Positions 9,282 to 30,798 are shown, counted from the first letter of the stretch. The stretch: DNA of 64,000 bases from Terriglobia bacterium (GCA_963823095.1 CAWGKI010000019.1:181129-245128); one strand, 5' to 3'. Translations and numbers: made by a program. Notes: generated by a model not told the origin, from the letters alone.

Positions 9282-9374
9282 TTGAGTTATTGGGCCAAGA
9301 CAAAGTGGTCCAAGGTCAAGATGGGATGATTGGCGCTATCATTGACATCTCCGAATCGGCGTGCGAAAATCTGA

Positions 9375-9415
9375 CTGCATATGATCATTATGTGAAACTT
9401 TCACACAATATGCAG
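9375..9415. promoter_or_regulatory. nested palindromic operator-like site in divergent DeoR / sugar-operon promoter region
   Basis: CTGCATAT(9375-9382)..TGTGAAAcTTTCACA(9391-9405, perfect 7-1-7 palindrome)..ATATGCAG(9408-9415) in an AT-rich spacer between divergent genes. Confidence 0.35.
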
Positions 9416-9520
9416 CGCTGCGAAAGTTAGCAGAAGGACGTTTTCGAACATCGGGTTTAGACGCTCTTCGAGTGGCTCTGCGTTCATCGCAGTTCTCATT
9501 GTCCGGAACGGGACGAATAA

Positions 9521-14648: not shown

Positions 14649-14879
14649 CCAGCGGGGAGGAATCGGTAATAGTCTTCGTGACAATCCGCATTCGGGAGGC
14701 GCAGAGAGGCTTCTATCACATTGATTTTGCGGAAGGCCCATCGACCAAGGCCTCCGCGGAAGACCCCAGCGTACTGGCACCAACTCGGCCTTTTGGAATG
14801 AATAACTTGCGTGAAACGGAGCAGAGGAGGAATTGATTCTGAAGGAGGAAGAAACTGGCTTAAGTCTAATGGAATTAAT

Positions 14880-14929
14880 TGGTTGCGGGGGTAGGATTTG
14901 AACCTACGACCTTTGGGTTATGAGCCCAA
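14880..14929 (-). repeat. 50-nt exact copy of the 3' half of tRNA-Met (anticodon stem to CCA): putative att core repeat (distal island end)
   Basis: 14880-14929 is identical to 30722-30771 (..ttggttgcgggggtaggatttgaacctacgacctttgggttatgagcccaa); identity breaks in the anticodon stem; flank 14678-14879 is additionally homologous (about 70 to 95%) to 30520-30721. Confidence 0.7.
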
Positions 14930-15333
14930 AAAATGATTTGCCCTCAGTTCCCCTCCATTGCCCTGGCTTCCCCCAAGATAGTGATTTCATTGCCCTGGGG
15001 TGCCCTCAGTTTGGTGACAAAATTGGTGACAGTTGCCCTCGATTGCCCTGGGTTCCCCAACGGATTGGTGACAGAATTGGTGACGACTTTCGCCTCCTCG
15101 TTTGCGACCGACATGTGCAAGCTAGACTGCATGCAGGCGCCATTATCCACAGGCCGCTGCCCATCGTCAAGCTTGTATTGCTTGTCGCGCTCATTCGGAG
15201 CATTACCGTAGCACCCGGCCAGGGTCAATCGGACGCCGGTGATTGCAGCAGAGGATTGGGAAGACGCAATCAGGAGGACACCAAACTAATACTCCCGCCT
15301 CTCCGACGCGTCCTGGCACAACCTACTCCTCGG

Positions 15334-15783
15334 TCACTTCGGCCCGGTTGAACCCTCAAGATCGGTGGCCCAATCCACGACCGTCAGAAACGGAGTCACG
15401 TGCTGAAAGGCTTTGTCGTGGGAGACGAGGACTGCACCGGTAGACAGTGCGTGTGAGGCGATAAGCAGGTCCATGACTGCAAGGCTCTTCCCCGCCGTCT
15501 TCAAGCGGGACCGCAGTCTTCCGTATGCTTGCGCTGCGGCAGAGTCCCAGGAGCGTATCTCGACTGCATCAAACAGCGTCTCAACCGAGGCCCGAAGGCG
15601 CGTGGCTTCCGGCTTCGACTCCAGCCCAAACAGAATCTCTGCTTCGGTAATCGTAGAAATCCCCACGGCTGTATGTTGAAGCGTCTGCTTCAACATCTCT
15701 CGCGCCGATTGTGAGCGACCGCTGACGATGTACGCTGTGATATTCGTATCGAGCAGATAGAGCGAAGAGCCGGTCACATCCAC
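15334..15783 (-). CDS. vapC: VapC family toxin (PIN domain ribonuclease)
   Basis: PIN-domain signature LYLLDTNITAYIV..; acidic residues spaced as in VapC; GTG start overlaps upstream antitoxin gene. Confidence 0.8.
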   Translation of the reverse strand: MDVTGSSLYLLDTNITAYIVSGRSQSAREMLKQTLQHTAVGISTITEAEILFGLESKPEATRLRASVETLFDAVEIRSWDSAAAQAYGRLRSRLKTAGKSLAVMDLLIASHALSTGAVLVSHDKAFQHVTPFLTVVDWATDLEGSTGPK

Positions 15784-16025
15784 TCCCGATCGACGGGCAG
15801 CGAGAGGTCGCGATCGAGCTCAAACTCAGCGGCACCGGCGGCATCGAGCGTTGCGAAGATTTCGTCCAGTGAGGGGCGGAGAGGCTTCTCTGAAAGAATA
15901 AGCACTCCGGTTTTGGGATTGCGCTCGATGTAGACTTCCTCAGTGTTGAACCGATATTCGGCCGGAATGCGGACTGCCTGGCTACGGCCATTGCGGAACA
16001 CACGAGCCTTTGTGGTTACAGCCAT
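15774..16025 (-). CDS. vapB: VapB family antitoxin (AbrB/SpoVT-type)
   Basis: FRNGRSQAVRIPAEYRF.. motif typical of AbrB-fold VapB antitoxins; 83 aa; overlaps vapC start by about 10 nt. Confidence 0.8.
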   Translation of the reverse strand: MAVTTKARVFRNGRSQAVRIPAEYRFNTEEVYIERNPKTGVLILSEKPLRPSLDEIFATLDAAGAAEFELDRDLSLPVDREWM

Positions 16026-16232
16026 CGGGATTCCCCTTTGATATCCATCATGATAGGCATCACGGCCGATGTCAAGATCTTGGGCACTCGCGAGAAATCA
16101 CCGGTGTCGTGCTTCCGGAAAACAAGTTCCTTTCGGGCTGCACTCGAATCCCGGGCTCACACGAGGTTACTCCCCACGAATCCGAGTGCCTCTGAAAATG
16201 CAGCGTGGTGAGAGGGAGCGCCTTTGCCGGAT

Positions 16233-17055
16233 GTGTTGCAACTTTGAAAGGGCAGCAAGTGACTCACTCGGTGGGTCGATTGGAGGCTACCTCGGGCAGC
16301 CAGATCGAACAACTTGTGGATGAACTGAATCTGCCTTGAAACATCCGAGCCGCTCACCCCCTGCGCCTGCCCCTTCCGGATCATATGCATCGCCTCGTAG
16401 CCCTCGATGGTTCGGCGCGCCGCGTGAAATTCGCGAAAGCCCTGCTCGGCTTTTACTCGTCGTTTGATCGCTCGATGGTCTTGCTCCAGCACATGATTCA
16501 AATACTGCACCGGGCGGTGCCGGCAGCGGCGACGAAGCGTACCTTCTTCTTTGACCCCCGGAATGGCGGGGTCTTAGATGCGGGCCTGGTCGGTGTCGAT
16601 CACGCGAGGCTGGGGATGCGCTGGATCGGCGAGAGCCTTGCGGAATAGTCGTTTGGCGGCTGCGGCATCACGCAACGCCGAGAGCAGGAAGTAGATGGTG
16701 GCGCCGCAGGAATCGATGGCTCGATACAGGTAGCACCAGCGGCCCTGCACTCGAATGTAAGTCTCATCTACGCGCCAGGATTTGTTGGTCGGCTTGAAAT
16801 GACGGCGCAGGCGTTGATCCAGTCCGGGGCCGTAGCGTTGCACCCAGTGCCAAATTGTCGTGTGGTCCGCCTCCACGCCGCGCTTAGTGAGCAGTTCTTC
16901 GACATCGCGGACCAAGAGCGAGTAGCGAAGATACCAACGCACGGCACAAAGAATGAACTCGGGGACCGTTTGCCGCCACTTGAAGATCGTCGGACGGATT
17001 ACCTTCTTCCCGGTCAATTCAGGCTGCCAGCCCCCACCTGGCAAAGTTGCAACAC
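16233..17055. mobile_element. IS6-family insertion sequence (about 823 bp) with imperfect terminal inverted repeats
   Basis: Left end gtgttgcaactttg (16233-16246) and right end ggcaaagttgcaacac (17040-17055) form IRs resembling IS26 GGCACTGTTGCAAA; internal transposase homologous to IS26 Tnp. Confidence 0.65.
16270..17017 (-). pseudogene. IS6-family (IS26-like) DDE transposase, frameshifted between about 16510 and 16575
   Basis: N-terminal piece (16574-17083 ORF: ..ILCAVRWYLRYSLLVRDVEELLTKRGVEADHTTIWHWVQRYGP..WRVDETYIRVQGRWCYLYRAID..VIDTDQA) and C-terminal piece (16157-16510 ORF: ..QYLNHVLEQDHRAIKRR..GF..TIEGYEAMHMIRKGQA) match IS26 Tnp but sit in different frames. Confidence 0.65.
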
Positions 17056-17333
17056 AACCGACTTTGACCCCTCCAGGCTCCAATTTCGTCCTGGTGCGGA
17101 GGACCCGAAACCGGGAATTCCAGGCAATTCAAGGCGTTTTACAGACACCGCTGCGGACCCTCCATCCTGCGCAACCGGATTTCGCTGACTCGTTGCCCAC
17201 GCGCTTCCGAAGAGCGTGTTTCCGGAACCGCCGAACGCGCCTCGTCGGACACCCGCTGGGCTTGGCGGCGGCACGCTCTGGAGGCCCAGATTCCGATACG
17301 CACGAAGGCGAAGCCGATATCGCCGTGGAAAAA

Positions 17334-17363
17334 TTACGAATAAGTGAAGTTTAGATGTATAAT
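17334..17363 (+). promoter_or_regulatory. extended -10 promoter (TTACGA-18 nt-TGTATAAT) upstream of SGNH hydrolase gene
   Basis: AT-rich patch in GC-rich DNA; tgtataat at 17356-17363; weak -35 ttacga 17334-17339. Confidence 0.3.
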
Positions 17364-17432
17364 CATCTCCGTTTAAGATTCAATATCGCTTTCAGGCGCA
17401 TGAAAACCGCTGAAGAACGGTAAGGGGATCGT

Positions 17433-18668
17433 ATGAAGCTTCTGCTTTGGATTGTGACGCTGACCGCGTGTATCGCTCCGGCGTCGGGTCAACGGAAGGC
17501 CGATCTTTCGAGGCTCGTCGTTATCGGCGACTCTTTGAGCGCGGGCTATCAAAATGGCTCGCTGCTCTCAACACAGCAGCCGCACGGCTATGCCAGTCTG
17601 GTCGCGAAGCAGGCCCAGGTGGCATTGTTCCTTCCTCTCATCGCTGCCCCGGGCATACCCAATGTCCTCGTTTTGTTGAGTCCCGGACCTCCGCCGATTA
17701 TTCTCCGGGCTCCCGGTGTGTCCTCCGGGCGTGTCGACCTCTCAACACAAGCCACCGATCTGGCGGTGCCCGGCCAGAACCTGCAAGACGCGCTAACCAC
17801 CCGGCCAAACTTGCCTATCGACGACATGACCGACCTGGTGCTGGGGCTCCCCGGTCTCCTGGCGGGGGTTTCCAAGAGTCAGGTGGAATGGGCTGAATCG
17901 CTCAACCCCACGACGGTCCTGGTCTGGCTGGGCAATAACGACGCCCTCGGCGCCGCAATCGCCGCGGACTCGAGCATCCTCACCCCGACCGCGCAATTCC
18001 AAGCGGCCTTTACGCAGGTCATGGACCGACTAGAGGCAACAGGGGCGAAACTCGTGGTCGCGAACATTCCCGATGTCACCGTGATTCCCTACCTGACCCC
18101 GGCGCTGAAGGTGGCTGAGACAGTGGGATTGCCCCTTTCAATAATTGGCCCGATTCTGGGGATCCAAGACGGCGATTTCGTTACTCCGGACGCGCTACCG
18201 CTGATTCCAGCCATCCTGCATGACCCAGCGCTGGGACCTTTGCCGGGCAACGTGGTGCTAACCGCCGCCGAGGTCGTGCAGATTCGCGCCGCCGTCGCCA
18301 GTTACAACCAGATCATCGAGTCGCAAGCTCGGGCCAAGGGAGCCGCTCTTGTGGACATCCACGCTCTTCTCAACCGAATCCACGCACAGGGATTCGTGAT
18401 TGATGGACACAGGCTCACCACGGACTTTCTCGGCGGCATCTTCTCGCTGGACGGTATTCACCCTACAAACACCGGGGCAGCGATACTCGCCAACGCATTC
18501 ATACACGCGCTAAACAGACATTTCGCAGCAGGCATTTCACCTGTCAACGTCGAGCAGATCGCCAGCACCGACCCATTAGTTCTACCCGGCGTCGGTCGCC
18601 CGGTGTCTTCGCTCGGGCACATCGACTCCGAGACCGCCGATTCGGTTCGGAAGCTGGTGGTTCACTGA
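17433..18668 (+). CDS. secreted SGNH/GDSL-family hydrolase (lipase/esterase-like)
   Basis: Signal peptide MKLLLWIVTLTACIAPASG; block I VVIGDSLSAGY (GDSL Ser), C-terminal DGIHPT catalytic His block. Confidence 0.75.
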   Translation: MKLLLWIVTLTACIAPASGQRKADLSRLVVIGDSLSAGYQNGSLLSTQQPHGYASLVAKQAQVALFLPLIAAPGIPNVLVLLSPGPPPIILRAPGVSSGRVDLSTQATDLAVPGQNLQDALTTRPNLPIDDMTDLVLGLPGLLAGVSKSQVEWAESLNPTTVLVWLGNNDALGAAIAADSSILTPTAQFQAAFTQVMDRLEATGAKLVVANIPDVTVIPYLTPALKVAETVGLPLSIIGPILGIQDGDFVTPDALPLIPAILHDPALGPLPGNVVLTAAEVVQIRAAVASYNQIIESQARAKGAALVDIHALLNRIHAQGFVIDGHRLTTDFLGGIFSLDGIHPTNTGAAILANAFIHALNRHFAAGISPVNVEQIASTDPLVLPGVGRPVSSLGHIDSETADSVRKLVVH

Positions 18669-20654: not shown

Positions 20655-20805
20655 AGCCTCAATCCGTGTGCCACGACCCGGATGGGCCGGGTACGCAGCC
20701 TTCCACGTTCATCAGGCATTTCCGCGATCGAACCGATGCTGTTTGAGCTTCAACCATCCCTCTCTTCTGACAGAATCCTGACAAATCCCTGATCCGATCG
20801 GCACA

Positions 20806-22732
20806 ATGGCGGCGCATACTCGATCCACTGTGCGTCCGCTGACGACCAAGCTGCTCTCGGTCCGCCGGAGCTTGCCGTTGTTCCTGGCAATCGTTGTCTG
20901 CTTGGCGATTTTGCAGGTGTGGCTCACGTGGCGTCTGATGGAACAGGACCGCAACCTCGCCGCGCAGCAGTCGCGCGAGCGCCTGGGGCAGATCGCCGAC
21001 CTCGCTGTCGCTCAACTTGCCAGCATGCTCGGCGAATGGGACCTCAGCCTGCGTCAGTTGGACGCTCTGCCGCCTCCGGCCGCGTTAGCGGCCAAGCTGC
21101 CGCGAAACGGCGCGTTGTTACTGATGGCACATCAATCGGTAACTTCATACCGGGGCAAACCGCTCCTGTACGTGCCTGCGCCTCCTTCGGCTGCTCCGCT
21201 CCCGCGGGCTTTCGATGCCGCCGAGAAGCTGGAGTTCCGCGATCAGAACTACGCTCGGGCACTGGAAGCCTTACGGCCGTTGACCGAGCAGCCTGCAACG
21301 CGTGCGGAGGCCCTACTGCGCATCGCTCGATTGGAGCGCAGGCTGAACCATCCGGGCGAAGCACTGGCAACGTATTATCGATTGTCGCGGGAGACCGCCA
21401 GCAGCCCCGAGGGCGTGCCGTACGCGCTTTTGGCAGCGGGAGCGCGCTGCGAACTGCCGGGGCACGGCAATGCGGTGGAGCAGTTGCGTGCGGCGCTCCT
21501 CGAAGGCCGCTGGCCAATCCACCGCGAGACCTTCGAATACTATTGGGCCGAAGTAAATCACCTCCGGCACACTACTGAAGATCCCCCGAAGGAGTCGATG
21601 GAGTTCTCCGCACTGGTGTCGCGGCTATACGAAGAGTGGCAAAGGGCGGTGCGGTCCGGAGCCAGTTTCAGCGGTCGAGAGGCCGAGCCGGACGCGTCGC
21701 TGCTGATCTGGCACGCGACGCCGTCACGGCTCGCCGCATTGTCCGCACCCCCTGGCTGGCTTGGCGCCGGCCTAAAGCTGCCCGCCAACGCCAGCGACAT
21801 TCGTTGGAAATGGATGGCTCCAGGCTTGTCAGCGTCAGGTTCAACAGCAGGCGCCGAGGCAGATGTGTCGCGTTCTCTGGCCGAGGCACAACTCACGGGC
21901 AAGCTTGAGTTCTCCAGCATCTCCGGCGTCTCATCTCGGGGGCTCAACCGCGCGCGGTGGCTGTCCGGTGTGGGACTGATGCTGGCATTGGTGCTGGCGG
22001 GCGCATACGCCATGTATCGGGGCGTAAGCCGGGAACTGCGCGTGGCAGTGCTCCAATCGGACTTCGTCTCCGCCGTTTCGCACGAGTTCCGCTCGCCGCT
22101 CACCTCGCTCAGGAGTATCACCGAGTTACTCGTGAACAACCGTCTGGCGGACGAGGGCCGCAGGCAGCAGAGTTACGTCTTTTCTGGAACGCGAAACAAG
22201 CCGGCTGCAACACCTGGTGGAAGATCTGCTCGATTTCGGACGCATGGAATCCGGGCGCAAGCAGTACCGCATCGAGCGGCACGACGTGTTTGGCCTGGTG
22301 CGGGGGGTTGTGGCGGATTTTCGCGAAGAGGCGCTGGCCAGCGGCTTCCAAGTGGAAATGAATCTCGATCCAAGCGAGGCGACCATCAAGGCGGATGACG
22401 AAGCGCTGCGGCGCGCGATCCGCAACCTGCTCGAAAACGCTTTGAAGTATTCACCGGAATGCCGCACCGTGTGGGTGGAAGGCCGGGTGAATCATCGCCA
22501 GGTAATGATTTCGGTGCGCGATCGCGGCATGGGCATCGATCCGCAGGAGCAGCGCGAGATATTTCAGAAATTCGTGCGAGGCGCGGCGGCGAAGAAGGCG
22601 GGTATCAAAGGCACGGGCATCGGGCTATCGATGGTACGGCAAATCGTCGATGCATGCGGAGGAGAGATCCGCCTGGAGAGTCAGGCAGGTGTGGGCAGCA
22701 CGTTCACGATCAAGCTACCTTTGGCCGGTTAA
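20806..22732 (+). pseudogene. sensor histidine kinase (two TM helices, roughly 360-aa periplasmic domain, HisKA + HATPase_c); 1-nt insertion in T-run at 22180-22183 splits it into two ORFs
   Basis: H-box VLQSDFVSAVSHEFRSPLTSLRSITELL in 20806-22398 ORF; continuation FLERETSRLQHLVEDLLDFGRMESG.. plus N/G1/G2 boxes (NLLENALKYS, DRGMGID, GTGIGLSMV) in 22217-22732 ORF; removing one T from gtcttttctgg restores ..SYVFLERETSRL.. Confidence 0.75.
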
Positions 22733-22746
22733 CGAGGAAGCGCGGA

Positions 22747-23868
22747 ATGGTCAGAATTCTAGTTGTCGAAGACGAACCCGGTATCGCGTTTGGCATCGAA
22801 AATGACCTTCAGGCGGAAGGTTACGACGTTACTGTTGCGAGCGACGGCAACGAAGCGGTTCGCCGCGCCCGCGCAGAGACCTTTGACCTGATTCTGCTTG
22901 ACGTAATGCTGCCGCATAAGGATGGCTTCGAGGTATGCCGCGACCTGCGCAGCGGTGGCCTGACCACGCCGATCGTGATGCTGACGGCGAAGACCGGCGA
23001 GTTCGACAAAGTAATGGGGCTCGATCTCGGAGCGGACGACTATGTCACTAAGCCGTTTAGCGCGCGCGAACTGCGAGCCCGGATTCGGGCGGCATTGCGT
23101 CACCAACCAGCCGGAGATTCCGCGGGCCCGGATATGCAGCGGCAACTCCGGGTGGCCTCGGATGTTCAGCACCGCTTATTCCCCCAGCTTCGTCCAGTCG
23201 TGGCGACTCTCGACTACGCGGGCTTCTGCCAGCCCGCGCTCGGAATGAGCGGCGACTACTACGATTTCCTGGACCTCTCGCCCGGCAAGCTCGGCTTGCT
23301 CGTGGCCGATGTAGTAGGCAAGGGCGTTCCTGCCGCTCTGCTGATGGCGTCCGTCCACAGCGCGATGCGCACGCTGGCGCCGCAGTTCGGAGAGCGTTGC
23401 GGCGAGCTGCTGGCCCAGCTCAACACGGTGCTCTATGAAGCGACGGCTGCCGATATGTACGCCACTATGTTCTATGCGGTCTACGACGACGCGTCGCGTG
23501 TGCTGACCTATTCGAACGCGGGGCATGAACCGCCGTTGTTGTTTCGCGCGACGGCGGCTGATGCCCGGCATATGCGATTGGATTCGGGCACAACTCCGGT
23601 GGGCCTGCTGCCTCAGTTGCCCACCGTACAGACGAGTGTCCAACTCGTTCCGGGAGACTGGCTGATTGTCTTTACCGACGGGATCACCGAAGCGCTAAAC
23701 GAAAGCGGACAAGAATTCGGTGCGGCCGGCTTAATCGCAGCGGTGGACGCCGCCTCCGCCCGGAACGCGGAGCAAATGCGCGACGCAATCGTCGGCGAAC
23801 TCCGCGGCTACAGCGGATCCATCCCGCAATCGGACGACATTACGCTCATCACTGCGCGCGTTCAATAG
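22747..23868 (+). CDS. response regulator with PP2C-type (SpoIIE/RsbU-like) serine phosphatase output domain
   Basis: REC domain (MVRILVVEDEP..DLILLDVMLP..TPIVMLTA..GADDYVTKPF) fused to PP2C/SpoIIE domain (..GMSGDYYDFLDL..LLVADVVGKGVPAALLMA..FTDGITEA..). Confidence 0.85.
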   Translation: MVRILVVEDEPGIAFGIENDLQAEGYDVTVASDGNEAVRRARAETFDLILLDVMLPHKDGFEVCRDLRSGGLTTPIVMLTAKTGEFDKVMGLDLGADDYVTKPFSARELRARIRAALRHQPAGDSAGPDMQRQLRVASDVQHRLFPQLRPVVATLDYAGFCQPALGMSGDYYDFLDLSPGKLGLLVADVVGKGVPAALLMASVHSAMRTLAPQFGERCGELLAQLNTVLYEATAADMYATMFYAVYDDASRVLTYSNAGHEPPLLFRATAADARHMRLDSGTTPVGLLPQLPTVQTSVQLVPGDWLIVFTDGITEALNESGQEFGAAGLIAAVDAASARNAEQMRDAIVGELRGYSGSIPQSDDITLITARVQ

Positions 23869-23870
23869 CT

Positions 23871-24563
23871 ATGGAAAGCGAACGTATGGCCAAGATTCTA
23901 GTTGTCGAAGACGAACCCGCCATCGCCTTCGCCCTGGAAAACGATCTTCATACGGAGGGTTACGAGATAACGCTAGTGGGCGACGGAGTGGAAGCCGTAA
24001 AGCGTGCCCGCGCGGAGTCCTTCGACCTGATCCTGCTGGACGTCATGCTGCCCAATAAGGACGGCTTCGAGGTCTGCCGCGAGCTGAGGCACGGCGGTCT
24101 GAGCACGCCCATCATCATGTTGACCGCAAGGATGCAGGAAGCGGAAAAGATTCTGGGGCTGGACGTGGGCGCCGACGATTATGTGACCAAGCCGTTCAGC
24201 CCGCGCGAGCTGCGCGCGCGCATCCGGGCCATGCTTCGGCGAAACGTGGTTGAGACGGGCGGCGAGGTACATCGCTTTGGCCGTTGCGAGTTGGACCTGG
24301 CGCGTTTCGAACTGCGGCGGGAGGGCCGCAAACTGGAGGCCACACACACTGAACTGAAACTCCTGACCGCTTTCATCCGCAACCGGGGACGCGTGCTCAC
24401 GCGCGAGGCCCTCCTCGAAAACGTCTGGGGTTCCGGCGTCTTCGTGACCGACCGTGTGGTGGACAACCACATTGTGGCGCTGCGGAAAAAGATAGAGGAC
24501 GATCCCTCCGCGCCCCGGTACCTGATCAGCATCCGCGGTATGGGCTATCGATTTGATGGGTAG
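23871..24563 (+). CDS. OmpR/PhoB-family response regulator (REC + winged-helix DNA-binding domain)
   Basis: REC (ILVVEDEP..DLILLDVMLP..TPIIMLTAR..GADDYVTKPF) plus trans_reg_C (..LTRTEFKLL-like ELKLLTAFIRNRGRVLTREALLENVWG..VDNHIVALRKKIE..YLISIRGMGYRF); its REC is about 75% identical to REC of preceding gene. Confidence 0.9.
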   Translation: MESERMAKILVVEDEPAIAFALENDLHTEGYEITLVGDGVEAVKRARAESFDLILLDVMLPNKDGFEVCRELRHGGLSTPIIMLTARMQEAEKILGLDVGADDYVTKPFSPRELRARIRAMLRRNVVETGGEVHRFGRCELDLARFELRREGRKLEATHTELKLLTAFIRNRGRVLTREALLENVWGSGVFVTDRVVDNHIVALRKKIEDDPSAPRYLISIRGMGYRFDG

Positions 24564-24674
24564 GTCCCCACGTGTCAGGAAATTCAGACCGAGTTCGTGC
24601 AAGATCCTGACTGAATCCCGATAACCCGCAAACATTGCCGCCGCATTCTGAAATCGCACTCCGGGAGGTGCGGC

Positions 24675-26783
24675 ATGAAACTCGAAAGACTCGAAAACCT
24701 GGCGCTGGCCTTGACGGCAGTCTTTTCCTTAATCCTCTGCGGAGCTGCCGTCGTCAGTATGATCGTGCTCGCTAGCCTGATTCTGGAGTTCGCCGCAGTG
24801 CCGCTGCATGCGCAAACGAGCCCCGCGGTCGAGCTTCAGGCGGCGATGACCAAAGAACAAGTGGATGGCGACCTCAAGACCGCAATCGCCGCCTATCAGA
24901 AGATCGCGGCGGACAAGTCTGCTCCCCGCGACGTACGCTCCAAGGCGCTGCTCCACCTGGCCGGTTGCTACGAAAAGCTCGGGCAGCGGGCCCAGAGCGT
25001 GTACCAGCAGATTGTGCGTGATTTTGCGGACCAGCCCGCCGCCGCGCAGGCGCGGGCGCGGCTCGCGGCGTTGAAGCAGGATGACCGTTCCGCCGCGCCC
25101 ACGGCGATGACGCAGCGCAAAATCCAGCCATTAGGCACTTGCCCGCCCCCGAATACCATCTGCATGGACCCCATCGACACCGACGGTCAACGAATGGTGT
25201 ACTTCAATTACTCAGCCGGGGAAGTGGTTTACGGTAACGCTGCCCAAAACAGCAAGCGTGTCTTCTTCAAGTTCAAACCAGGTGCAGGGAGTAGTCTCTA
25301 TCCGTCGAGGGACTTCTCGAAGGCTCTCATTGAAGTCAACAGCCAAACTGGCGAATTAGCCGGAGGCCAATTAGCCGTCGTTAACACGGATGGGACCGGT
25401 TATCGCGAACTCGGCAAGTTCGCCAGCCTCCAGCACGGAGCTGAGAGCTGGTCTTGGGATAATCGGTCCGTCCTGGTCCCGTGTCAAACTCCAGGGGGTA
25501 AGGGCCGCCTGCTGAGTGTCTCGCTCGCCGATGGCCAAATCCGCGAGTTGGTCAGTCTCGAAACAGGAACGGTAGCCCGTGCCGTGTTCTCTCCAGACGG
25601 CCGCTTCGTGGCCTACGAAGTCCCCGCGCCCTCGGTGGAGGATCCGGAGTCGAGGATGTTCGTGGTGCCTGCCCAGGGGGGACAACCGCAATTAGTCTAC
25701 CAGCAGCGGCTGACATGGTTCTCTCCTTGGGAACGACCGGTCAAACTCCTGGATTGGACGGCTGACGGACGCTTTCTCGCCATTGCCAGCGATCGCACAG
25801 GCAAAGGCGCGCTTCACCTTCTGCCAATGAAAGACGGCAAATCTGCTGGCGCCCCAGTCTTTGTCAAGTATGGAGATTTCGAAGAGGGCGTCACGACTGC
25901 CGCCGGGGGATTGGTTTACCGTTCTATCAAACCTGGTGGCCTATTTTCGGTCTATCTGGCATCGCTCGATGCGGCTGGTCGCCCAGGCGATTGGAAACGC
26001 CTGGATCTTCCCCTTGGCAATACCCTCTTTCCGGAGACTAATTGGTCTATTGACAGCAATGAAATCGTCTACTCTGCGATGAACGAAGACTCGGGACAAT
26101 CTGGTGGCCAGGTGGTCCATCTGCGTAACCTCTCCACGGGAGCGGATCGCGAGATCTATCACGCGCTCGGTTACTCCACTTGCGCATGGGCGTTTCAGCA
26201 ACCGAAGCTTTTCTGCGGCGACTACACGGCCGCAAAGTCGGACATCTTTTCGATTGCGGTGGACTCAGGGGAAATTACCCGGCTCCACACCTTTCAAAGG
26301 CCGGCGATCGGGATGCCCTACCCCAGCCAAGACGATCGGGCGCTTTACCTTACTCGCATACTCGGGGACGGCAAGTGGGAACTCCTGCGATGGGAAATCG
26401 CGACCGGGCGGGAGACGATACTCGAGAAGTTCATCCCCACCGAGACCTTTGTGCTGTTATCGGCGGACACGCGCTGGCTCATCCGCGCGAACAGCGCCAA
26501 TAAAAGCCTCGATATACGCCTCGCGGCAGGCGGCGATTGGAAATCGCTCGTTTCCTTCAGCGAATTCTGGGGGGTGACGCTGCTCGTCAACGACACGCCT
26601 GACGGCAAGTGGCTGCTGTACCATGGCGTCGATTCCACTGGAAAACACAGCCTGTTTCGCATCGCGACTGCGGGCGGTACGCCGGAGCGGCTGGGCGACT
26701 TCTCAACATCGGAGGCTTTGGAACCATGGTGGTCAGCCCCGATGGGAGCAAGATTCTCGTCGTCTCGCGGGCACGTTTTCTAA
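24675..26783 (+). CDS. membrane-anchored/secreted TPR-like + TolB-like (PD40) beta-propeller protein, copy 1 (C-terminal 35 codons disrupted by indels)
   Basis: Hydrophobic N-terminus, TPR-like helical segment (..LKTAIAAYQKIAADKSAPRDVRSKALLHLAGCYEKLGQ..), then PD40-type repeats (FSPDGRFVAYE, WTADGRFLAIASDRTGKGALHLLPMKDGKS); the last 100 nt differ from copy 2 by a -1 and a +2 indel. Confidence 0.7.
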   Translation: MKLERLENLALALTAVFSLILCGAAVVSMIVLASLILEFAAVPLHAQTSPAVELQAAMTKEQVDGDLKTAIAAYQKIAADKSAPRDVRSKALLHLAGCYEKLGQRAQSVYQQIVRDFADQPAAAQARARLAALKQDDRSAAPTAMTQRKIQPLGTCPPPNTICMDPIDTDGQRMVYFNYSAGEVVYGNAAQNSKRVFFKFKPGAGSSLYPSRDFSKALIEVNSQTGELAGGQLAVVNTDGTGYRELGKFASLQHGAESWSWDNRSVLVPCQTPGGKGRLLSVSLADGQIRELVSLETGTVARAVFSPDGRFVAYEVPAPSVEDPESRMFVVPAQGGQPQLVYQQRLTWFSPWERPVKLLDWTADGRFLAIASDRTGKGALHLLPMKDGKSAGAPVFVKYGDFEEGVTTAAGGLVYRSIKPGGLFSVYLASLDAAGRPGDWKRLDLPLGNTLFPETNWSIDSNEIVYSAMNEDSGQSGGQVVHLRNLSTGADREIYHALGYSTCAWAFQQPKLFCGDYTAAKSDIFSIAVDSGEITRLHTFQRPAIGMPYPSQDDRALYLTRILGDGKWELLRWEIATGRETILEKFIPTETFVLLSADTRWLIRANSANKSLDIRLAAGGDWKSLVSFSEFWGVTLLVNDTPDGKWLLYHGVDSTGKHSLFRIATAGGTPERLGDFSTSEALEPWWSAPMGARFSSSRGHVF

Positions 26784-27050
26784 TGACTACGAACTGTGGT
26801 CTCTCGAAAACTTCGTTCCTCCGGCGCCGAAACCGTGAGGAGTTGCGATTCGAATGTTGGGCAGAAGAGAGAAGATGATTCCTCCGCAGCCCGGTACCTG
26901 ATCAGCATCCGTGGTATGGGATATCGATTTGATGGGTAAGATCTCGCGTGTCAGGAAATCCAGACCGAGTTCATGCAAGGTCCTGACCGAATCCCGATAC
27001 TCCGCGAACATTGCAGCGGCATTCTGAAATCGCACTCTGGGAGGTGCGGC

Positions 27051-29207
27051 ATGAAACTCGAGAGACTCGAAAACCTGGCGTTGGCCTTGACGGCAGTCTT
27101 CTCCTTGCTGCTCTGCGCAACTGCAGTCTTGAGTATTGGCATACTGATTGGCCTGTTGTCCCAGTTCGCGGTCATGCCGCTGCATGCGCAAACCAGCCCC
27201 GCGGTCGAGCTTCAGGCGGCGATGACCAAAGAACAAGTGGATGGCGACCTCAAGACCGCCATCGCCGCCTATCAGAAGATCGCGGCGGACAAGGCTGCTC
27301 CCCGCGACGTGCGCTCGAAGGCTCTGCTCCATCTCGCCGGGTGCTACGAGAAGCTCGGACAGCAGGCACAGAGCGTGTACCAGCAGATTGTGCGTGATTT
27401 TGCGGACCAGCCCGCCGCCACGCAGGCGCGGGCGCGGCTCGCGGCGTTGAAGCAGGGTGACCGTTCCGCCGCGCCCACGGCGATGACGCAGCGCAAGATC
27501 CAGCCGTTAGGCACTTGCCCGGACCCGGAGGCTACCAATTGCGCGGGCCCGGGGGACACCGACGGTCACCGCATGGTGTACGCGAATTTCGCAGCCGGAG
27601 AAGTGGTTTATGGGGATCTTGCGCAACACAGCGAGGTTGTCCTTTTTAGGTTTAAACCCGGAGGCTTGGGTTGGTTCATTCCATCGAGAGATTTCTCGAA
27701 GGTCCTACTCGGAGTCCCCGGTGCGTCCGGCGGTCAACTAGCCGTCGTTAACACAGATGGGACGGGTTATCGCGAAATAGGCAAACTCGAGGTCCAACTG
27801 CGAGGTGTGAAGTGGTCTTGGGATAATCGCTACGTCCTGATCTGGGGCCAGTCTCCAGGGGGGAAGGGTCGCCTGCTGAGTGCCTCGCTCGCCGATGGCC
27901 AAACCCGGGAGTTGGTCACTCTCGAAACAGGAACAGTGGCGAGTGCAGCGTTTTCTCCGGACGGCCGTTTCGTGGCCTACGAGGTCCCCTCGCCCTCGGT
28001 GACCGACCCGGAATCCAGGATGTTCGTGGTGCCTGCTCAGGGGGGTCCGCCGTTGCTGGTCTACCAGCAACGACTGAGATGGGTTTCGCCTTGGCAACGG
28101 CCCGTCAGACTCCTGGATTGGACGGCCGACGGACGCTATCTCGCCATCGCCAGTGATCGCACAGGCAAGGGCGCGCTTCACCTCCTGCCCATGAAAGACG
28201 GCAAATCTGGCGGCGACCCAGTCTTTGTCAAGTACGGAGATTTCGAAGAGGGCGTCACGACAGCCTCAGGGGGAATGGTTTACACTTCGGTGAAACCTGG
28301 CGGCCTTTGGTCGGTCTATCTCACGTCGCTCGATGCGGATAGTCGGCCGGGCGATTGGAAACGCCTGGATCTTCCCCTCGGCAACACCTACAATCCGTGG
28401 CCTCAATGGTCTGTTGACAGCAGAGAAATCGTCTACTCTGCGATGAACGAAGATTCTGGACAATCCGGTGGCGAGGTGGTGCATCTGCGCAGCCTTTCTA
28501 CTGGAGCGGATCGCGAGATCTATCACGCGCTCGGTTACTCCACTTGCGCATGGGCGTTTCAGCAGCCAAAGCTTTTCTGCAGCGACTACACGGCTGAAAG
28601 GTCGGACATCTTTTCGATTGCGTCCGACTCCGGAGAAATCGCCCGGCTTCACACCTTTGAAACGCCCGCGGTCGCGTTGCCCTACCCCAGCCAAGATGAC
28701 CGGGCGCTTTACATGACTCGCATACTTGGGGACGGCGCGTGGGAACTCCTGCGATGGGAAATCGCGACCGGGCGGCAGACGATCCTCGAGAAGTTCATCC
28801 CGACCAAGGCCCAGGTTCTAATTTCGCCGGACGAGCGCTGGCTCATGCGGGTGAACATAACCAAGAATAGCTTCGACATACGCCCCGTGGCAGGCGGCGA
28901 CTGGAAATCTCTAGTTTCGTTCAGCGGCAGTAACGCTTGGAGGGGATCTGGGCACGTCAACGACACGCCCGACGGCAAGTGGCTGCTGTACCATGACGTC
29001 GATTCCACCGGAAAACACAGCCTGTTTCGCATAGCGGCCGCGGGCGGTTCGCCGGAGCGTCTGGGCGATTTCCCAACAAAGGAGAGGTCCGGCACCTTGG
29101 TGGTCAGCCCCGATGGGAGCAAGATCCTCGTCTCCGCGGGCGAGCCTTTTGATGGCTACGAACTGTGGTCTCTCGAAAACTTCGTTCCTCCGGCGCCGAA
29201 ACCGTGA
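27051..29207 (+). CDS. TPR-like + TolB-like beta-propeller protein, copy 2 (apparently intact, ends ..YELWSLENFVPPAPKP)
   Basis: ATG 27051 with GGGAGG RBS (27039-27044); about 90% aa identity to copy 1. Confidence 0.75.
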   Translation: MKLERLENLALALTAVFSLLLCATAVLSIGILIGLLSQFAVMPLHAQTSPAVELQAAMTKEQVDGDLKTAIAAYQKIAADKAAPRDVRSKALLHLAGCYEKLGQQAQSVYQQIVRDFADQPAATQARARLAALKQGDRSAAPTAMTQRKIQPLGTCPDPEATNCAGPGDTDGHRMVYANFAAGEVVYGDLAQHSEVVLFRFKPGGLGWFIPSRDFSKVLLGVPGASGGQLAVVNTDGTGYREIGKLEVQLRGVKWSWDNRYVLIWGQSPGGKGRLLSASLADGQTRELVTLETGTVASAAFSPDGRFVAYEVPSPSVTDPESRMFVVPAQGGPPLLVYQQRLRWVSPWQRPVRLLDWTADGRYLAIASDRTGKGALHLLPMKDGKSGGDPVFVKYGDFEEGVTTASGGMVYTSVKPGGLWSVYLTSLDADSRPGDWKRLDLPLGNTYNPWPQWSVDSREIVYSAMNEDSGQSGGEVVHLRSLSTGADREIYHALGYSTCAWAFQQPKLFCSDYTAERSDIFSIASDSGEIARLHTFETPAVALPYPSQDDRALYMTRILGDGAWELLRWEIATGRQTILEKFIPTKAQVLISPDERWLMRVNITKNSFDIRPVAGGDWKSLVSFSGSNAWRGSGHVNDTPDGKWLLYHDVDSTGKHSLFRIAAAGGSPERLGDFPTKERSGTLVVSPDGSKILVSAGEPFDGYELWSLENFVPPAPKP

Positions 29208-29419
29208 GGAGTTGCGATTCGAATGTTGGGCAGAAGAGAGAAGATGATTCCTCCGCAGCCCGGTACCAGACCAGCATTCGCGGTATGGGATATCGGTTTG
29301 ATGTGTAGGATCTCGCGTGCCAGGAAATCCAGACCAAGTTCACGCAAGGTCCTGACCGAATCCCGATATCCCGCAAACATTCCCGCCACATTCTGAAATC
29401 GCACTCTGGGAGGTGCGGC

Positions 29420-29983
29420 ATGAAACTCGAAAGAATCGAAAACCTGGCACTGGCCCTGACTGCAGTCTTTTCGATACTGCTCTGGGGAGCTGCCGTCGTC
29501 AGCATGGTCCTGTTGGCGGGCCTGATTTTGGAGTTCTCCGCAGTGCCGCTGCATGCGCAAACGAGTCCAGCGGTGGAGCTTCAGGCGGCGATGACCAAAG
29601 AACAAGTGGATGGCGACCTCAAGACCGCAATCGCCGCCTATCAGAGAATTGCGGCGGATAAGTCCGCTCCCCGCGACGTGCGCTCCAAGGCGCTGCTCCA
29701 TCTCGCGGGGTGCTACGAAAAGCTCGGGCAGCAGGCGCAGAGCGTGTACCAGCAAATCGTGCGTGATTTCGCGGACCAGCCCGCCGCCACGCAGGCCCGG
29801 GCACGGCTGGCGGCGTTGAAGCAGGATGACCGTCCCGGTGCGCCCACGGCGATGACGCAGCGCAAGATCCAGCCGTTAGGCAACCGCGTGGGCCCGCGCC
29901 CGGCGGACACCGACCGTCACCGATTAGGAGAGTACACATGCGAAAGACAATATCTATTACACTCGCGTTGCTCATGGCGTTGA
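29420..29983 (+). CDS. truncated third copy of TPR-like gene (N-terminal 150 aa only, then unrelated tail)
   Basis: Identical architecture through ..TAMTQRKIQPLG, then a deletion and divergence; likely gene remnant. Confidence 0.45.
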   Translation: MKLERIENLALALTAVFSILLWGAAVVSMVLLAGLILEFSAVPLHAQTSPAVELQAAMTKEQVDGDLKTAIAAYQRIAADKSAPRDVRSKALLHLAGCYEKLGQQAQSVYQQIVRDFADQPAATQARARLAALKQDDRPGAPTAMTQRKIQPLGNRVGPRPADTDRHRLGEYTCERQYLLHSRCSWR

Positions 29984-30306
29984 ACTTGGTCCCTTCGGCT
30001 TTTGGCAAGGACAGCGTAGCAAGCCAGATAACAGCCATGCCAATTGGCGCGAAGATCGAACTTCACCTCAAAAACAAACAAACCATGCGGGGTACCAGAG
30101 GGCAGTTATCGAACGCCGGTTTTGCGCTGGTCGACGCAAGTAAGCAAGAACACCAGATTGCGTTCGACGACGTGGGCTCGGTAAAACGGCTCACCACAAA
30201 GTCGCACCTCGCGCGCAACGTGCTGATCCTGGTTGGCCTCGGTGTGGTCGTGCTGGGTGTCATGGCCCTCCTCATAGAAGCTGCTCGTCACAAAGCACCG
30301 TTTTAA
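29938..30306 (+). CDS. small secreted protein with C-terminal transmembrane anchor (122 aa)
   Basis: Signal peptide MRKTISITLALLMALNLVPSAFG; C-terminal hydrophobic helix VLILVGLGVVVLGVMALLIEAA. Confidence 0.4.
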   Translation: MRKTISITLALLMALNLVPSAFGKDSVASQITAMPIGAKIELHLKNKQTMRGTRGQLSNAGFALVDASKQEHQIAFDDVGSVKRLTTKSHLARNVLILVGLGVVVLGVMALLIEAARHKAPF

Positions 30307-30721
30307 CATTTCCATATTGAAATGTCTGGACGGATTCCGCGGAAAGCATGCGTATTCCGGGCGATGCCGATCATGATTCCGGCTGATGGTCTGTCACTGT
30401 TTAGCTTGTCTTGCGCGAGGAATTTAGGGTAATCATCTGGCTTCACGCAACCCAGTGTGCACGGGCATATTCCCCCAATGAGCCGACTGCCCTTGGGCGG
30501 GGAATTGGTGACAGTATTGGTGACATTCCGCATTCAGTACGTTCGGAGAAGCGTATATCGCATTGATTTCGCAGGAGGTCCATGGGCGAGGGCTTCCGCG
30601 GGAGAACCCAATGTGCTGTCACCAATTTCGTCTTTTGGAATGAATAACTTGCGTGGAACAGAGCAGAGGAGAAATTGATTCTGAAGGAGGAGGAAACTGG
30701 CTTAAGTCTAATGGAATGAAT

Positions 30722-30798
<77 letters not shown>

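Follow-up and report, generated by a model that had tools for sequence, protein, structure and literature searches.

Among the closest known systems, RocS1-RocA1-RocR of Pseudomonas aeruginosa is described as a kinase gene clustered with two regulator genes in a branched, one-to-many arrangement (bioRxiv 10.1101/2024.10.18.618891). In RsbK-RsbY of Bacillus cereus and HptB-HsbR-HsbA of Pseudomonas, a histidine kinase or phosphorelay controls a protein that joins a receiver (REC) to a SpoIIE/PPM phosphatase (PMC4574943, PMC6482189, PMC12143880). P. aeruginosa RssB (PDB 3eq2/3f7a), a REC-PPM protein, forms a dimer in which the linker helices cross, the PPM domain of Escherichia coli RssB is truncated and inactive, and a general model holds that REC-PPM phosphatases are controlled through linker and dimer (PMC12143880). 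PhoR-PhoB pairs a HisKA kinase with an OmpR/PhoB-family regulator, as does the locus analyzed here. The pho box consists of 11-bp direct repeats over the -35 region.

We analyzed a 64-kb stretch of DNA, called the window throughout, in which positions 20806 to 24563 encode three proteins: a HisKA/HATPase_c kinase, a REC protein with a SpoIIE/PP2C output (REC-PP2C), and an OmpR-type regulator. A Pfam domain search agreed with the preliminary description, which had called a periplasmic-sensing kinase, a REC-PP2C protein of SpoIIE/RsbU type, and an OmpR output, and the ORF listing of the window gave the same positions. These genes and those that follow them are as follows.

20830 to 22732, plus strand: sensor histidine kinase gene with a +1 frameshift (alternative start, ATG 20806)
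22180 to 22183, plus strand: frameshift site, TTTT in place of the TTT required for an intact frame (...QSYV-FLERETSRL...)
22747 to 23868, plus strand: REC-PP2C response regulator, 373 aa (identical to public protein P0001)
23886 to 24563, plus strand: OmpR/PhoB-family response regulator, REC plus winged-helix Trans_reg_C, 225 aa (public annotation from ATG 23886; alternative start, ATG 23871)
24675 to 26783, plus strand: T1, TPR and tandem beta-propeller protein, 702 aa (public protein P0242)
27051 to 29207, plus strand: T2, intact paralogue, 718 aa (public protein P0241)
29420 to 29983, plus strand: T3, truncated third copy

As in Roc, one regulator is DNA binding and the other has an enzymatic output. 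However, RocR has an EAL phosphodiesterase rather than a PP2C phosphatase as its output, the kinase RocS1 is unorthodox and includes an Hpt relay, RocA1 is a NarL/FixJ-type regulator, Roc lacks near-identical twin receivers, and a propeller partner is absent. The RsbY and HsbR phosphatases adjoin STAS and anti-sigma partners and lack a twin DNA-binding regulator, whereas the window has no linked STAS gene and its REC-PP2C receiver is of the OmpR/PhoB subfamily, copied from or coevolving with the neighboring transcription factor. The RssB family acts as adaptors or in sigma-S control; the window protein keeps all of the catalytic motifs. Its REC-to-PP2C linker (QPAGDSAGPD) is short and Pro/Gly rich and a continuous coiled coil is not obvious, so that the published linker model may not transfer directly. 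Compared with PhoR-PhoB, the window cassette has no Pst partner, and its kinase has a large periplasmic sensor that PhoR lacks. All of the parts are of known kinds, but we know of no earlier description of their conserved combination with TolB-like propeller proteins.

The trio and the propeller genes downstream of it form a conserved acidobacterial cassette, which we found at 12 other loci with unrelated flanks.

Full cassette (kinase, REC-PP2C, OmpR regulator, propellers), flanking genes unrelated: L081/L082, L083/L084, L085, L088, L089, and one JGI contig
Partial loci, cut by contig ends but with a still compatible gene order: L087, L090, L091
Cassettes without REC-PP2C (kinase, OmpR regulator, and propellers only): L172, L173

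The kinase and regulators are adjacent in all cassette loci, and all 10 loci with sufficient flank keep the order kinase/REC-PP2C/OmpR regulator or REC-PP2C/kinase/OmpR regulator. The branched layout that had been proposed, one kinase gene with two regulators of different output, is therefore present and retained. The window locus is one copy of a conserved envelope-signaling unit that is acidobacterial and probably belongs to the Bryobacteraceae. At its core are a histidine kinase in the membrane, an OmpR-type regulator, and between one and three exported double-propeller proteins that are TolB/CpoB-like. Some cassettes, that of the window among them, have a gene for a second response regulator, with a SpoIIE/RsbU-type PP2C output, placed between those of the kinase and the regulator. 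L172 and L173, both without REC-PP2C, hold the closest relatives of the window kinase (75 to 78%) and regulator (84 to 85%). REC-PP2C is an optional insert in the cassette and is dispensable in the closest cassettes. The TPR/TolB-like genes had been noted as neighbors of the trio; their position stands, but they are more than neighbors, being a conserved part of the cassette that shares the sequence box of its operator. The TonB_C neighbor is incidental, with no counterpart gene at any other cassette locus.

As sequenced, the kinase lacks the single-frame HisKA and HATPase_c of a classical two-component kinase, whereas its orthologues are intact. The ORF at 20806 to 22398 matches HisKA only at residues 417 to 452 before the frame is lost, and the HATPase_c part lies in the +1 frame and runs to a stop at 22732. 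The suspected frameshift is real in the sequence as given, amounting to one extra T at 22180 to 22183. Removing one T gave a 641-aa kinase (HisKA, residues 417 to 483, E 5.9e-14; HATPase_c, residues 530 to 640, E 1.3e-28) that is colinear with intact orthologues. One of these, the intact 633-aa kinase P0121, is 93% identical to the repaired protein and identical to it across the frameshift junction. Judged from P0121 and L173, the true start is likely GTG 20830. The architecture is TM1, a periplasmic Cache-like domain with an inserted TPR, TM2, DHp, and HATPase_c, with the phospho-acceptor His at residue 426 counted from 20806 (codon 22081 to 22083). In an AlphaFold2 model (pLDDT 87.9), two TM helices stand on either side of a periplasmic domain of ~340 aa, and the sensor adopts a Cache-like fold into which a TPR array is inserted. 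This sensor family has at least 245 proteins.

The frameshift bears on whether the window copy works at all. There is a substantial possibility, though short of an even chance, that the cassette in this genome is a decaying remnant on a degenerate insertion, without current function. In addition to the frameshift, two indels (-1 and +2) have put the C-terminal ~22 aa of T1 out of frame relative to T2, T3 is truncated, and a broken IS6 transposase lies nearby. Neither kinase ORF was found as a protein in the public collection, which suggests pseudogene annotation, and the intact appearance of the other ~50 window genes makes a generally high error rate unlikely. However, the kinase carries only a single lesion, and the sequence past it continues in an open frame that differs very little from P0121. 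Neither regulator is damaged, nor is T2, and one extra homopolymer base is also typical of assembly error. The one-base insertion, the damaged T1, and the truncated T3 imply that this copy was probably recently inactivated or is decaying, unless the insertion is a sequencing error. We hold with moderate confidence that the locus is a conserved envelope-signaling cassette whose kinase feeds both receivers. Given the frameshifted kinase, the window organism may have lost the pathway or may drive it with a paralogous kinase.

The OmpR-type regulator (Response_reg, E 2.7e-30; Trans_reg_C, E 2.9e-25) joins a receiver that keeps E8/D9, D52, T80, and K102 to a winged helix, and its NCBIfam PhoB score of 212.7 is far below the cut-off of 296.2. 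Its receiver and that of REC-PP2C had been put at about 75% identity, and the count is 88 of 118 residues (74.6%). This value is far above the level for unrelated OmpR-family receivers. The best 80 genome matches to the REC-PP2C receiver were only 39 to 61% identical, and identity to an approximate PhoB reference sequence was 42 to 48%. At the DNA level, the twins are 70 to 73% identical and match at 47 to 49% of third codon positions. The receivers are therefore twins, as the word "duplicated" had implied, but not the product of a recent event: synonymous sites are at the saturated baseline, which makes the duplication old, and the REC-PP2C/OmpR pair occurs in distant lineages.

Within-locus receiver identity was 68 to 86% in all 8 pairs, which represent about 5 deep lineages, and none of 44 derangements of the pairs reached the observed value. 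In a phylogeny of the two REC domains, they clustered by locus in L085, L089, and L090 (bootstrap 97, 91, and 100, respectively), which are deep lineages. The excess identity is concentrated in helix alpha1 (0.86 within a locus versus 0.48 to 0.56 across lineages), which is the kinase-docking helix of receivers, and the DHp helix of the kinase differs between the lineages compared. The twins also share the alpha4-beta5-alpha5 signature DDYVTKPFSxRELRARIRA. In L090, the PP2C module accompanies a very different kinase/regulator pair, and its receiver is locally matched. These results suggest that one membrane sensor kinase probably feeds two near-identical receivers, a reading supported indirectly by an alpha1 that is common to the twins of each lineage yet differs between lineages. 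The pattern fits coevolution with a shared kinase, old gene conversion, or repeated receiver replacement alike.

The REC-PP2C protein (Response_reg, E 5.7e-30; SpoIIE, E 2e-50) consists of an OmpR/PhoB-subfamily receiver (residues 1 to 118), a short variable linker, and a SpoIIE/PPM phosphatase domain (residues ~179 to 372) with its metal-binding Asp motifs. The 24 homologues compared all keep the GDYYD, DVxGKG, DG, and DDxT motifs and the phospho-acceptor (D52, codon 22900 to 22902) unchanged. For the receiver, the best PDB and NCBIfam matches are the PhoP, YycF/WalR, CreB, PhoB, and OmpR receivers, and in a search with REC motifs the matching protein was a REC-wHTH protein in 79 of 80 genome loci. 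The only solved structure that matches over both domains is RssB 3eq2 (query residues 4 to 335, E 1.6e-21). A 469-aa ORF from 22459 was rejected as the REC-PP2C gene because it is an out-of-frame read-through of the 3' end of the kinase gene.

The module had been called "partner-switching-type," a label that is unproven, since no STAS, RsbW-like, or sigma-factor gene was found around the cassette. None was present among ~45 proteins scanned in the window, and Pfam lists gave none among the genes up to ~10 kb from the cassette at 12 other loci, the pair in L172 excepted, so that the window and the flanks examined hold no STAS antagonist with an RsbW-type anti-sigma kinase near the phosphatase. 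That pair, an ECF sigma factor and a Ser/Thr kinase, lies 8 kb upstream of the L172 cassette. Known partner-switching systems usually keep the phosphatase beside its STAS partner, and this linkage is absent at the window locus. By analogy with RsbK-RsbY and HptB-HsbR-HsbA, REC-PP2C could still dephosphorylate a STAS anti-sigma antagonist encoded elsewhere and so place an alternative sigma factor under the control of an envelope signal. Membership of the phosphatase in the SpoIIE/RsbU Pfam family (E 2e-50) is consistent with such classical partner switching, as is the fact that the characterized REC-PP2C regulators known to us act on STAS proteins or as adaptors (PMC12143880, PMC6482189, PMC4574943). 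With no linked partner in either survey, we regard this explanation as rather unlikely.

It is improbable, in our judgment, that REC-PP2C acts mainly by its receiver, as a phosphate sink or antagonist. It would compete for or drain the phosphoryl groups of the kinase because its docking surface is the same as that of the OmpR-type regulator, or the two proteins would form mixed alpha4-beta5-alpha5 dimers; the transcriptional response would be tuned or shortened and the phosphatase domain would be secondary. The near identity of the receivers, with the same alpha1 and alpha4-beta5-alpha5 signature, the dispensability of the PP2C gene in L172 and L173, and the lack of a linked substrate gene in the 64-kb window all point this way, and Roc is a known branched system that pairs a DNA-binding with an enzymatic regulator (bioRxiv 10.1101/2024.10.18.618891). 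However, the PP2C domain is under clear purifying selection, its metal-binding motifs being invariant in homologues down to 51% identity, and between L090 and the rest it is 48 to 62% conserved when the kinase is only 25 to 28% conserved. Such conservation is hard to explain if the receiver alone mattered.

A long shot is that the twin receivers, besides letting both regulators dock on one kinase, let the two form phosphorylation-dependent mixed dimers and that the PP2C substrate is a Ser/Thr-phosphorylated component of the cassette itself. Mixed alpha4-beta5-alpha5 dimers would place the PP2C domain on the OmpR-type regulator or the kinase, and a candidate site is the conserved Thr in DDYVTKPF, which we take to be the position where PrkC phosphorylates WalR. 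If true, the cassette would be a self-contained circuit integrating His-Asp and Ser/Thr signaling, which would explain both the missing linked STAS partner and the fusion of the propeller to Hanks-type kinases (P0314).

The upstream regions of the cassette and of its propeller genes share putative regulatory elements.

20767 to 20799, plus strand: putative operator read from the sequence, three helically phased 11-bp direct repeats, CTGACAGAATC CTGACAAATCC CTGATCCGATC
20815 to 20820, plus strand: -10-like hexamer CATACT, 9 nt before GTG 20830, inferred from an alignment of upstream regions
24607 to 24621, plus strand: CTGACTGAATCCCGA box, 68 nt before the first propeller gene
26983 to 26997 and 29352 to 29366: copies of the CTGACTGAATCCCGA box, before T2 and T3, respectively

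Of the 11 loci for which upstream sequence is available, 9 have the putative operator, CTGACAnAAnC in 2 to 4 copies, ahead of the operon; in L172 and L173, TATACT occupies the position of the hexamer. Like the pho box, the putative operator has 11-bp direct repeats over the -35 region near a -10 hexamer; the repeat sequence differs (CTGACA versus CTGTCAT). CTGA-N7-CTGA occurred 12 times in ~243 kb (the window and 10 loci, both strands), 11 of these sites being no more than 170 nt upstream of the first cassette gene and all on the gene strand, in a count for which the pattern was partly derived from the same upstream regions and only L091, L172, and L173 were kept out of that derivation. Of 9 loci, 7 have a [C/G]TGAC box between -67 and -70 relative to the first propeller gene. 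By lineage, strict CTGAC was found in 4 and the looser [C/G]TGAC in 6, and the binomial P value of 1.8e-4 applies to at least 5 of 7 lineages at a 10% per-window chance of strict CTGAC.

The propeller proteins contain a YbgF-like TPR (residues 64 to 130) and a TolB-like propeller (residues 229 to 467). They fall far below the NCBIfam equivalog cut-offs for TolB (40.7 versus 343 bits) and YbgF (23.2 versus 90.1) and resemble TolB/CpoB at the fold level only. T2 has an N-terminal hydrophobic helix, a CpoB/YbgF-like TPR, and a double beta-propeller; the first ~150 aa of T3 are 86 to 91% identical to T1 and T2, and the remainder is unrelated. Unlike TolB and CpoB (YbgF) of Tol-Pal, with which they share these folds, the window proteins carry two propellers, lie outside any tol-pal operon, evolve fast, and have been duplicated repeatedly. 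The propeller recurs as the extracytoplasmic module of other signaling proteins, being fused to a wHTH in L081 and L173 and to a Hanks-type Ser/Thr kinase in P0314.

For the favored reading, a kinase that feeds both receivers, we propose the following sequence of events. The kinase would be switched by a cue in the periplasm, which the propeller proteins may relay; His426 would be phosphorylated, and the phosphoryl group would pass to Asp52 of both receivers, which present the same docking helix alpha1. The phosphorylated OmpR-type protein would then bind two predicted elements, the CTGACA repeats that overlap the operon's -35 region and the related box that precedes the propeller genes by ~68 nt, and would so regulate both its own operon and the propeller genes. 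Phosphorylated REC-PP2C would dimerize via its OmpR-type alpha4-beta5-alpha5 face, turning on the phosphatase, which would strip Ser/Thr phosphate from a protein encoded elsewhere. The domain content, the cassette's conservation, the twin-receiver pattern, the repeats with their positions, and the lesions were observed; from these we infer the signal, phosphotransfer to both receivers, DNA binding, and phosphatase activation.

Acidobacteriota are abundant in soil, and to our knowledge their signaling is almost unstudied. Because the cassette recurs as a defined envelope-sensing unit and has a predicted operator, it lends itself to direct testing. The twin receivers also bear on how new outputs are wired into existing two-component pathways. 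Paralogous regulators usually diverge and so avoid cross-talk; here the second output seems, from the receiver sequences, to stay connected by keeping or recopying the kinase-docking surface of the resident regulator. Confirmation would make the cassette a natural case of a pathway that branched through duplication of a receiver.

The suggestion that the module is island borne was half borne out. No integrase was found, nor any recombinase ORF in 14930 to 17433 or 29208 to 30720, which hold only vapBC and the split IS6 transposase, GC content inside the repeats (0.57 to 0.63) is about equal to that of the flanks, without a compositional shift, and elsewhere the cassette lies among housekeeping genes. 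What stands is a 276-nt imperfect direct repeat that contains the 3' half of tRNA-fMet and brackets 15.8 kb holding vapBC and the broken IS6 transposase.

14654 to 14929, minus strand: left copy, 3' half of tRNA-fMet plus ~225 nt, within a chimeric pseudo-tRNA (14883 to 14957, Rfam 32.7 bits)
30496 to 30771, minus strand: right copy, overlapping the genuine tRNA-fMet (30725 to 30798, Rfam 69.2 bits)

The 3' part of a tRNA thus lies in direct repeats at both ends, as in a tRNA-linked island, and the two copies show 85% identity in total, with a stretch of ~63 nt from the anticodon stem in which they do not differ.

ORF calling on the plus strand gave a run of three long ORFs, at 20806-22398, 22459-23868, and 23871-24563, corresponding to a sensor kinase, a REC-PP2C regulator, and an OmpR-type regulator. 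In the second ORF, what look like the first 96 residues are the kinase C terminus read out of frame, and the true start of the REC-PP2C gene is the ATG at 22747 (MVRILVVEDEP...), which gives a 373-amino-acid protein identical to public protein P0001. Using Pfam, we found Response_reg (E = 5.7e-30) and SpoIIE (E = 2e-50) in this protein and Response_reg plus Trans_reg_C in the product of the third gene, which is publicly annotated from the ATG at 23886. Thus, the gene trio and its domains, including PP2C, are as the preliminary description had them. The receiver (REC) domains of the two regulators, described there as about 75% identical, are indeed identical at 88 of 118 positions (74.6%), and the acidic pocket, Asp52, Thr80, Tyr99, and Lys102 are kept in both.

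Homologues of the REC-PP2C protein number in the thousands. Among them, the ~120 best matches are 50 to 81% identical to it and nearly all have the two-domain architecture; one truncated match among them is SpoIIE alone, and the few that are named come from Acidobacteriota. The contigs of nine REC-PP2C homologues each carried the identical gene set: a HisKA/HATPase_c kinase of 602 to 687 amino acids, the REC-PP2C regulator, an OmpR-type regulator of 224 to 226 amino acids, and one or two propeller proteins of 669 to 901 amino acids with matches to Tricorn_N, PD40, and TPR models. The gene order is kinase, PP2C, regulator, propeller, with the PP2C gene first in the related loci L083/L084 and L091. 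Flanking genes differ at every locus (purine biosynthesis genes, metG, peptidases, and toxin-antitoxin pairs), and therefore the cassette is a conserved unit. The TonB_C protein that the preliminary description had placed beside the module, a GDSL lipase, and ORF 18904 have no homologue in the other cassette loci searched and were ruled out as members. A role of the cassette in anti-phage defence was also ruled out, as PADLOC gave only weak receiver-domain matches.

Within this unit, the PP2C regulator is an optional insert. Two related loci, L172 and L173 (the latter from a Bryobacteraceae metagenome-assembled genome), have kinase, regulator, and propeller cassettes without a PP2C gene, and these are the nearest relatives of the window kinase (75 to 78% identity) and regulator (84 to 85%). 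The PP2C-containing cassettes are 55 to 61% and 75 to 77% identical to the window in the same two proteins. The relatives of the kinase sensor are closer (93% and 73 to 76%) than those of the PP2C protein (81% and below). At locus L090, the opposite extreme, the kinase is only 25 to 28% and the regulator 43 to 49% identical to all others, yet the PP2C domain is 48 to 62% identical, as if the PP2C module had been fitted anew to another kinase and regulator. The two receivers of the L090 cassette (8103-11895 of that locus) are 78% identical to each other and almost identical over their first 40 residues.

All eight complete pairs of twin receivers, meaning the REC domains of the two regulators at one locus, showed 68 to 86% within-locus identity. 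At the DNA level, the receiver segments are 70 to 73% identical, and their third codon positions only 47 to 49%. The fraction of identical residues encoded by the same codon was 0.49 in the window and 0.41 to 0.51 in six other loci, compared with 0.42 in saturated comparisons across distant lineages; it was 0.66 in L090, though GC3 there is 0.91. Because within-locus codon identity is about that of distant pairs, recent tandem duplication and recent gene conversion of the receiver are ruled out. Judged by codon identity, the receiver duplication is old, with the similarity kept at the protein level and not by a recent copy.

A phylogeny of the REC domains, a check suggested in the preliminary description, clusters the pairs by locus in the deep lineages, where same-locus receivers are mutual closest relatives (bootstrap values of 97 for L085, 91 for L089, and 100 for L090). 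With one locus taken per lineage, none of 44 mismatched pairings reached the observed mean identity (0.76 versus at most 0.65). The regions of the receiver differed as follows.

Receiver identity within a locus and between lineages, by region
Helix alpha1 (residues 10-24): 0.86 within locus; 0.48-0.56 between lineages
beta2-alpha2: 0.62 within locus; about 0.40 between lineages
beta3, beta4, and beta5: no within-locus excess over between-lineage identity

Structural and genetic work has established helix alpha1 as the main receiver surface that docks on the DHp helices of its kinase, and the DHp helix after the phospho-acceptor His varies between the same lineages. The alpha1 pattern is as would be expected if both receivers fit one kinase. 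The twin receivers may instead stem from gene conversion long ago or from a local copy having repeatedly replaced the receiver of the PP2C protein, and both the beta2-alpha2 excess and the L090 case point in that direction. In the receiver tree, the window PP2C receiver falls with its PP2C counterparts from L081, L087, and L088 and the window OmpR receiver with L172 and L173. Given this separate grouping, the twin-receiver pair is ancestral within the window clade, and L172 and L173 either lost it or are paralogous cassettes.

The REC-PP2C receiver itself belongs to the OmpR subfamily. Its best matches among solved structures and NCBIfam models are the receivers of PhoP, YycF/WalR, CreB, PhoB, and OmpR, and it retains the alpha4-beta5-alpha5 signature GADDYVTKPFSxRELRARIRA. 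A genome-collection scan with the full REC-PP2C alignment relied on receiver-derived patterns and yielded nothing but generic OmpR-type regulators; of the 80 genome loci retrieved by these receiver motifs, 79 have REC plus winged helix as the matching protein. A PP2C-only alignment run against metagenomes found other SpoIIE architectures at 37 to 49% identity and no more cassettes. The only solved structure matched by both REC-PP2C domains is Pseudomonas aeruginosa RssB. Phosphatases of the PPM family headed by receiver, PAS, or GAF domains have been proposed to be dimers regulated via the linker and dimer interface (PMC12143880). In the REC-PP2C protein, phosphorylation-driven dimerization through alpha4-beta5-alpha5 would be a natural means of switching the phosphatase, although this step is inferred, given that the family has a short, variable, Pro/Gly-rich REC-to-PP2C linker.

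Since all catalytic motifs are invariant across the homologues, the phosphatase is expected to be active. The preliminary description had raised a STAS-type anti-sigma-antagonist partner; no STAS, RsbW-like, or sigma factor gene was found in the 64-kb window or beside any cassette examined. Candidate substrates are a distant STAS protein and a target of Hanks-type kinases, which are frequent in Acidobacteriota; a component of the cassette is a less likely candidate.

Upstream of the kinase gene, we found three 11-bp direct repeats.

20767-20799, plus strand: three 11-bp direct repeats, CTGACAGAATC CTGACAAATCC CTGATCCGATC, 5' of the kinase gene

The repeats are followed by CATACT, and the GTG at 20830 lies 9 nt further on. 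A -10-like hexamer only 9 nt from the start, as also in L172 and L173, suggests that the kinase transcript is leaderless or nearly so. TGAC-N7-TGAC occurs once window-wide against 1.77 expected, which is not significant alone; what speaks for an operator is where the pattern lies from locus to locus. In about 243 kb of window and loci sequence, both strands included, there are 12 CTGA-N7-CTGA matches, and 11 of them are on the coding strand, no more than 170 nt upstream of the gene that opens the cassette. L091, L172, and L173 were left out when the pattern was defined, yet they are among the matching loci. Of the 11 loci with sequence upstream of the operon, 7 have the strict pattern there, and 9 have repeats once L090 (a looser TGACA-N6-TGA only) and L089 (a degenerate pair, found by eye) are included; the upstream region of L085 has no operator repeat match. 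The final repeat of L172 and L173 stops 4 to 5 nt short of a TATACT hexamer, and therefore the repeats span the -35 region, where pho boxes likewise lie.

A [C/G]TGAC box is also present on the coding strand 67 to 70 nt before the first propeller gene at seven of nine loci; L083 has it at -52, L085 lacks it, and four loci have an inverted copy at -100 to -103. Counted by independent lineage, strict CTGAC is found in four of seven and the looser box in six of seven. The binomial probability of five or more of seven lineages is 1.8e-4 given a 10% per-window chance of strict CTGAC, a rate that makes the value only rough for the looser box. In the window, whose propeller genes are T1 (24675-26783), T2 (27051-29207), and T3 (29420-29983), the promoter was duplicated along with the gene, and the box is accordingly also found before T2 and T3. 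On the simplest interpretation, both the propeller genes and the operon of the OmpR-type regulator itself would be under the control of that regulator.

The AlphaFold2 model of the first 410 kinase residues is confident (pLDDT, 87.9), and we read the sensor as a Cache-like scaffold (a long N-terminal helix and strands 103-115 and 288-371) with a predicted TPR array inserted at ~134-284. In the T2 model (pLDDT, 86.6), we see a hydrophobic helix at the N terminus, TPR-like repeats (about two and a half), and a beta-structured part of ~560 residues matching tandem double propellers (Aip1, LRP6, and tricorn); weak NCBIfam matches of T2 to YbgF and TolB are far under the cutoffs. Members of the propeller family occur joined to an OmpR-type winged helix in L081 (18799-20805) and L173 (14902-16986), giving one-component regulators a few kilobases from the cassettes, and to a Hanks-type Ser/Thr kinase in protein P0314. 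These fusions suggest a general use of the propeller as an extracytoplasmic sensor module in the phylum, and with such sensory use elsewhere, a co-sensor role for T1 and T2 is as plausible as a pure output role.

The propeller proteins are 21 to 63% identical between loci and evolve much faster than the signalling proteins. Copies at one locus are mostly mutual nearest relatives, and therefore tandem duplication has recurred in a lineage-specific manner. Independent tandem duplications of the propeller gene were seen in L081, L087, L089, and L172. In the window, the gene is tandemly amplified about 2.2 times (24390-29983) with a period of ~2370 bp. Because this repeat unit starts within the 3' end of the OmpR-type gene, relics of the regulator precede T2 (~26766-26939) and T3 (~29135-29308). 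T3 is truncated after ~150 residues. Relative to T2, T1 has a 1-nt deletion and a 2-nt insertion at ~26710-26783, which shift the final ~22 residues into another frame and bring an early stop; these indels are a second lesion in the window cassette besides the kinase frameshift.

The HisKA kinase, the OmpR-family regulator, the REC-PP2C regulator, and the branched layout of one kinase and two regulators are of known kinds, the layout being that of the Roc system. We found no description of the cassette in the literature searched. Undescribed there are the conserved combination of its parts, a PP2C-borne OmpR-subfamily receiver mirroring its neighbour's kinase-docking helix, the link to amplifying TolB/CpoB-like double propellers, and the shared putative operator. 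The proposed mechanism of the cassette is testable.

The kinase frameshift mentioned in the preliminary description is present in the given sequence. The ORF at 20806-22398 contains only the first half of HisKA by Pfam (residues 417-452) and runs on into Arg/Gly-rich nonsense, and the remaining DHp and a complete HATPase_c are encoded in the +1 frame, which reaches its stop at 22732. The frame breaks at GTC TTTT CTG, with an extra T in the run at 22180-22183. Deleting one T gives a 641-amino-acid kinase with HisKA at 417-483 (E = 5.9e-14) and HATPase_c at 530-640 (E = 1.3e-28), which aligns colinearly with seven intact orthologues. P0121, a 633-amino-acid kinase from a different sample, is 93% identical in the sensor part and identical to the repaired kinase across the junction. 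Programmed frameshifting was ruled out in that the orthologues are unshifted, frame 0 stays open for 70 more codons, and neither a stop nor a known slippery context is present. Because ~50 other window genes appear intact and neither of the two possible frameshifted kinase ORFs has a counterpart in the public protein collection, we lean toward a real, very recent inactivating mutation as the probable cause rather than an assembly error. As the kinase start, GTG 20830, which P0121 and L173 also use, is more probable than ATG 20806. In P0197, a 478-amino-acid protein from a Logan assembly, the periplasmic kinase sensor runs straight into the end portion of the regulator's receiver and its winged helix. 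Rather than a domain-fusion clue, P0197 reads as a deletion variant or an assembly chimera.

Copies of an imperfect 276-nt direct repeat flank the 15.8-kb segment in which the cassette lies.

14654-14929, minus strand: left repeat, in a chimeric pseudo-tRNA (Rfam, 32.7 bits)
15334-15783 and 15774-16025, minus strand: vapBC-type pair (PIN protein and AbrB/MazE-like protein, respectively) at the left end of the segment
16157-16510 and 16574-17083, minus strand: IS6-family transposase split in two ORFs, adjoining vapBC
30496-30771, minus strand: right repeat, in a genuine tRNA-fMet gene (Rfam, 69.2 bits)

The repeat starts exactly at the tRNA-fMet anticodon stem, is identical for ~63 nt, and then decays to 75 to 85%. 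The module had been called island-borne, and this stands in part: the tRNA-fMet repeats, the vapBC pair, and the split IS6 element speak for it, and the lack of an integrase or a compositional signal in the segment and the chromosomal location of the cassette at other loci speak against it. The segment looks like an old tRNA-targeted insertion without an integrase. Also in the window are two adjacent proteins of CarboxypepD_reg repeats (39703-43122), a second PIN-domain toxin gene (55723-56124), and, just outside the right tRNA, a 610-amino-acid SPFH/Band 7 protein (31085-32917).
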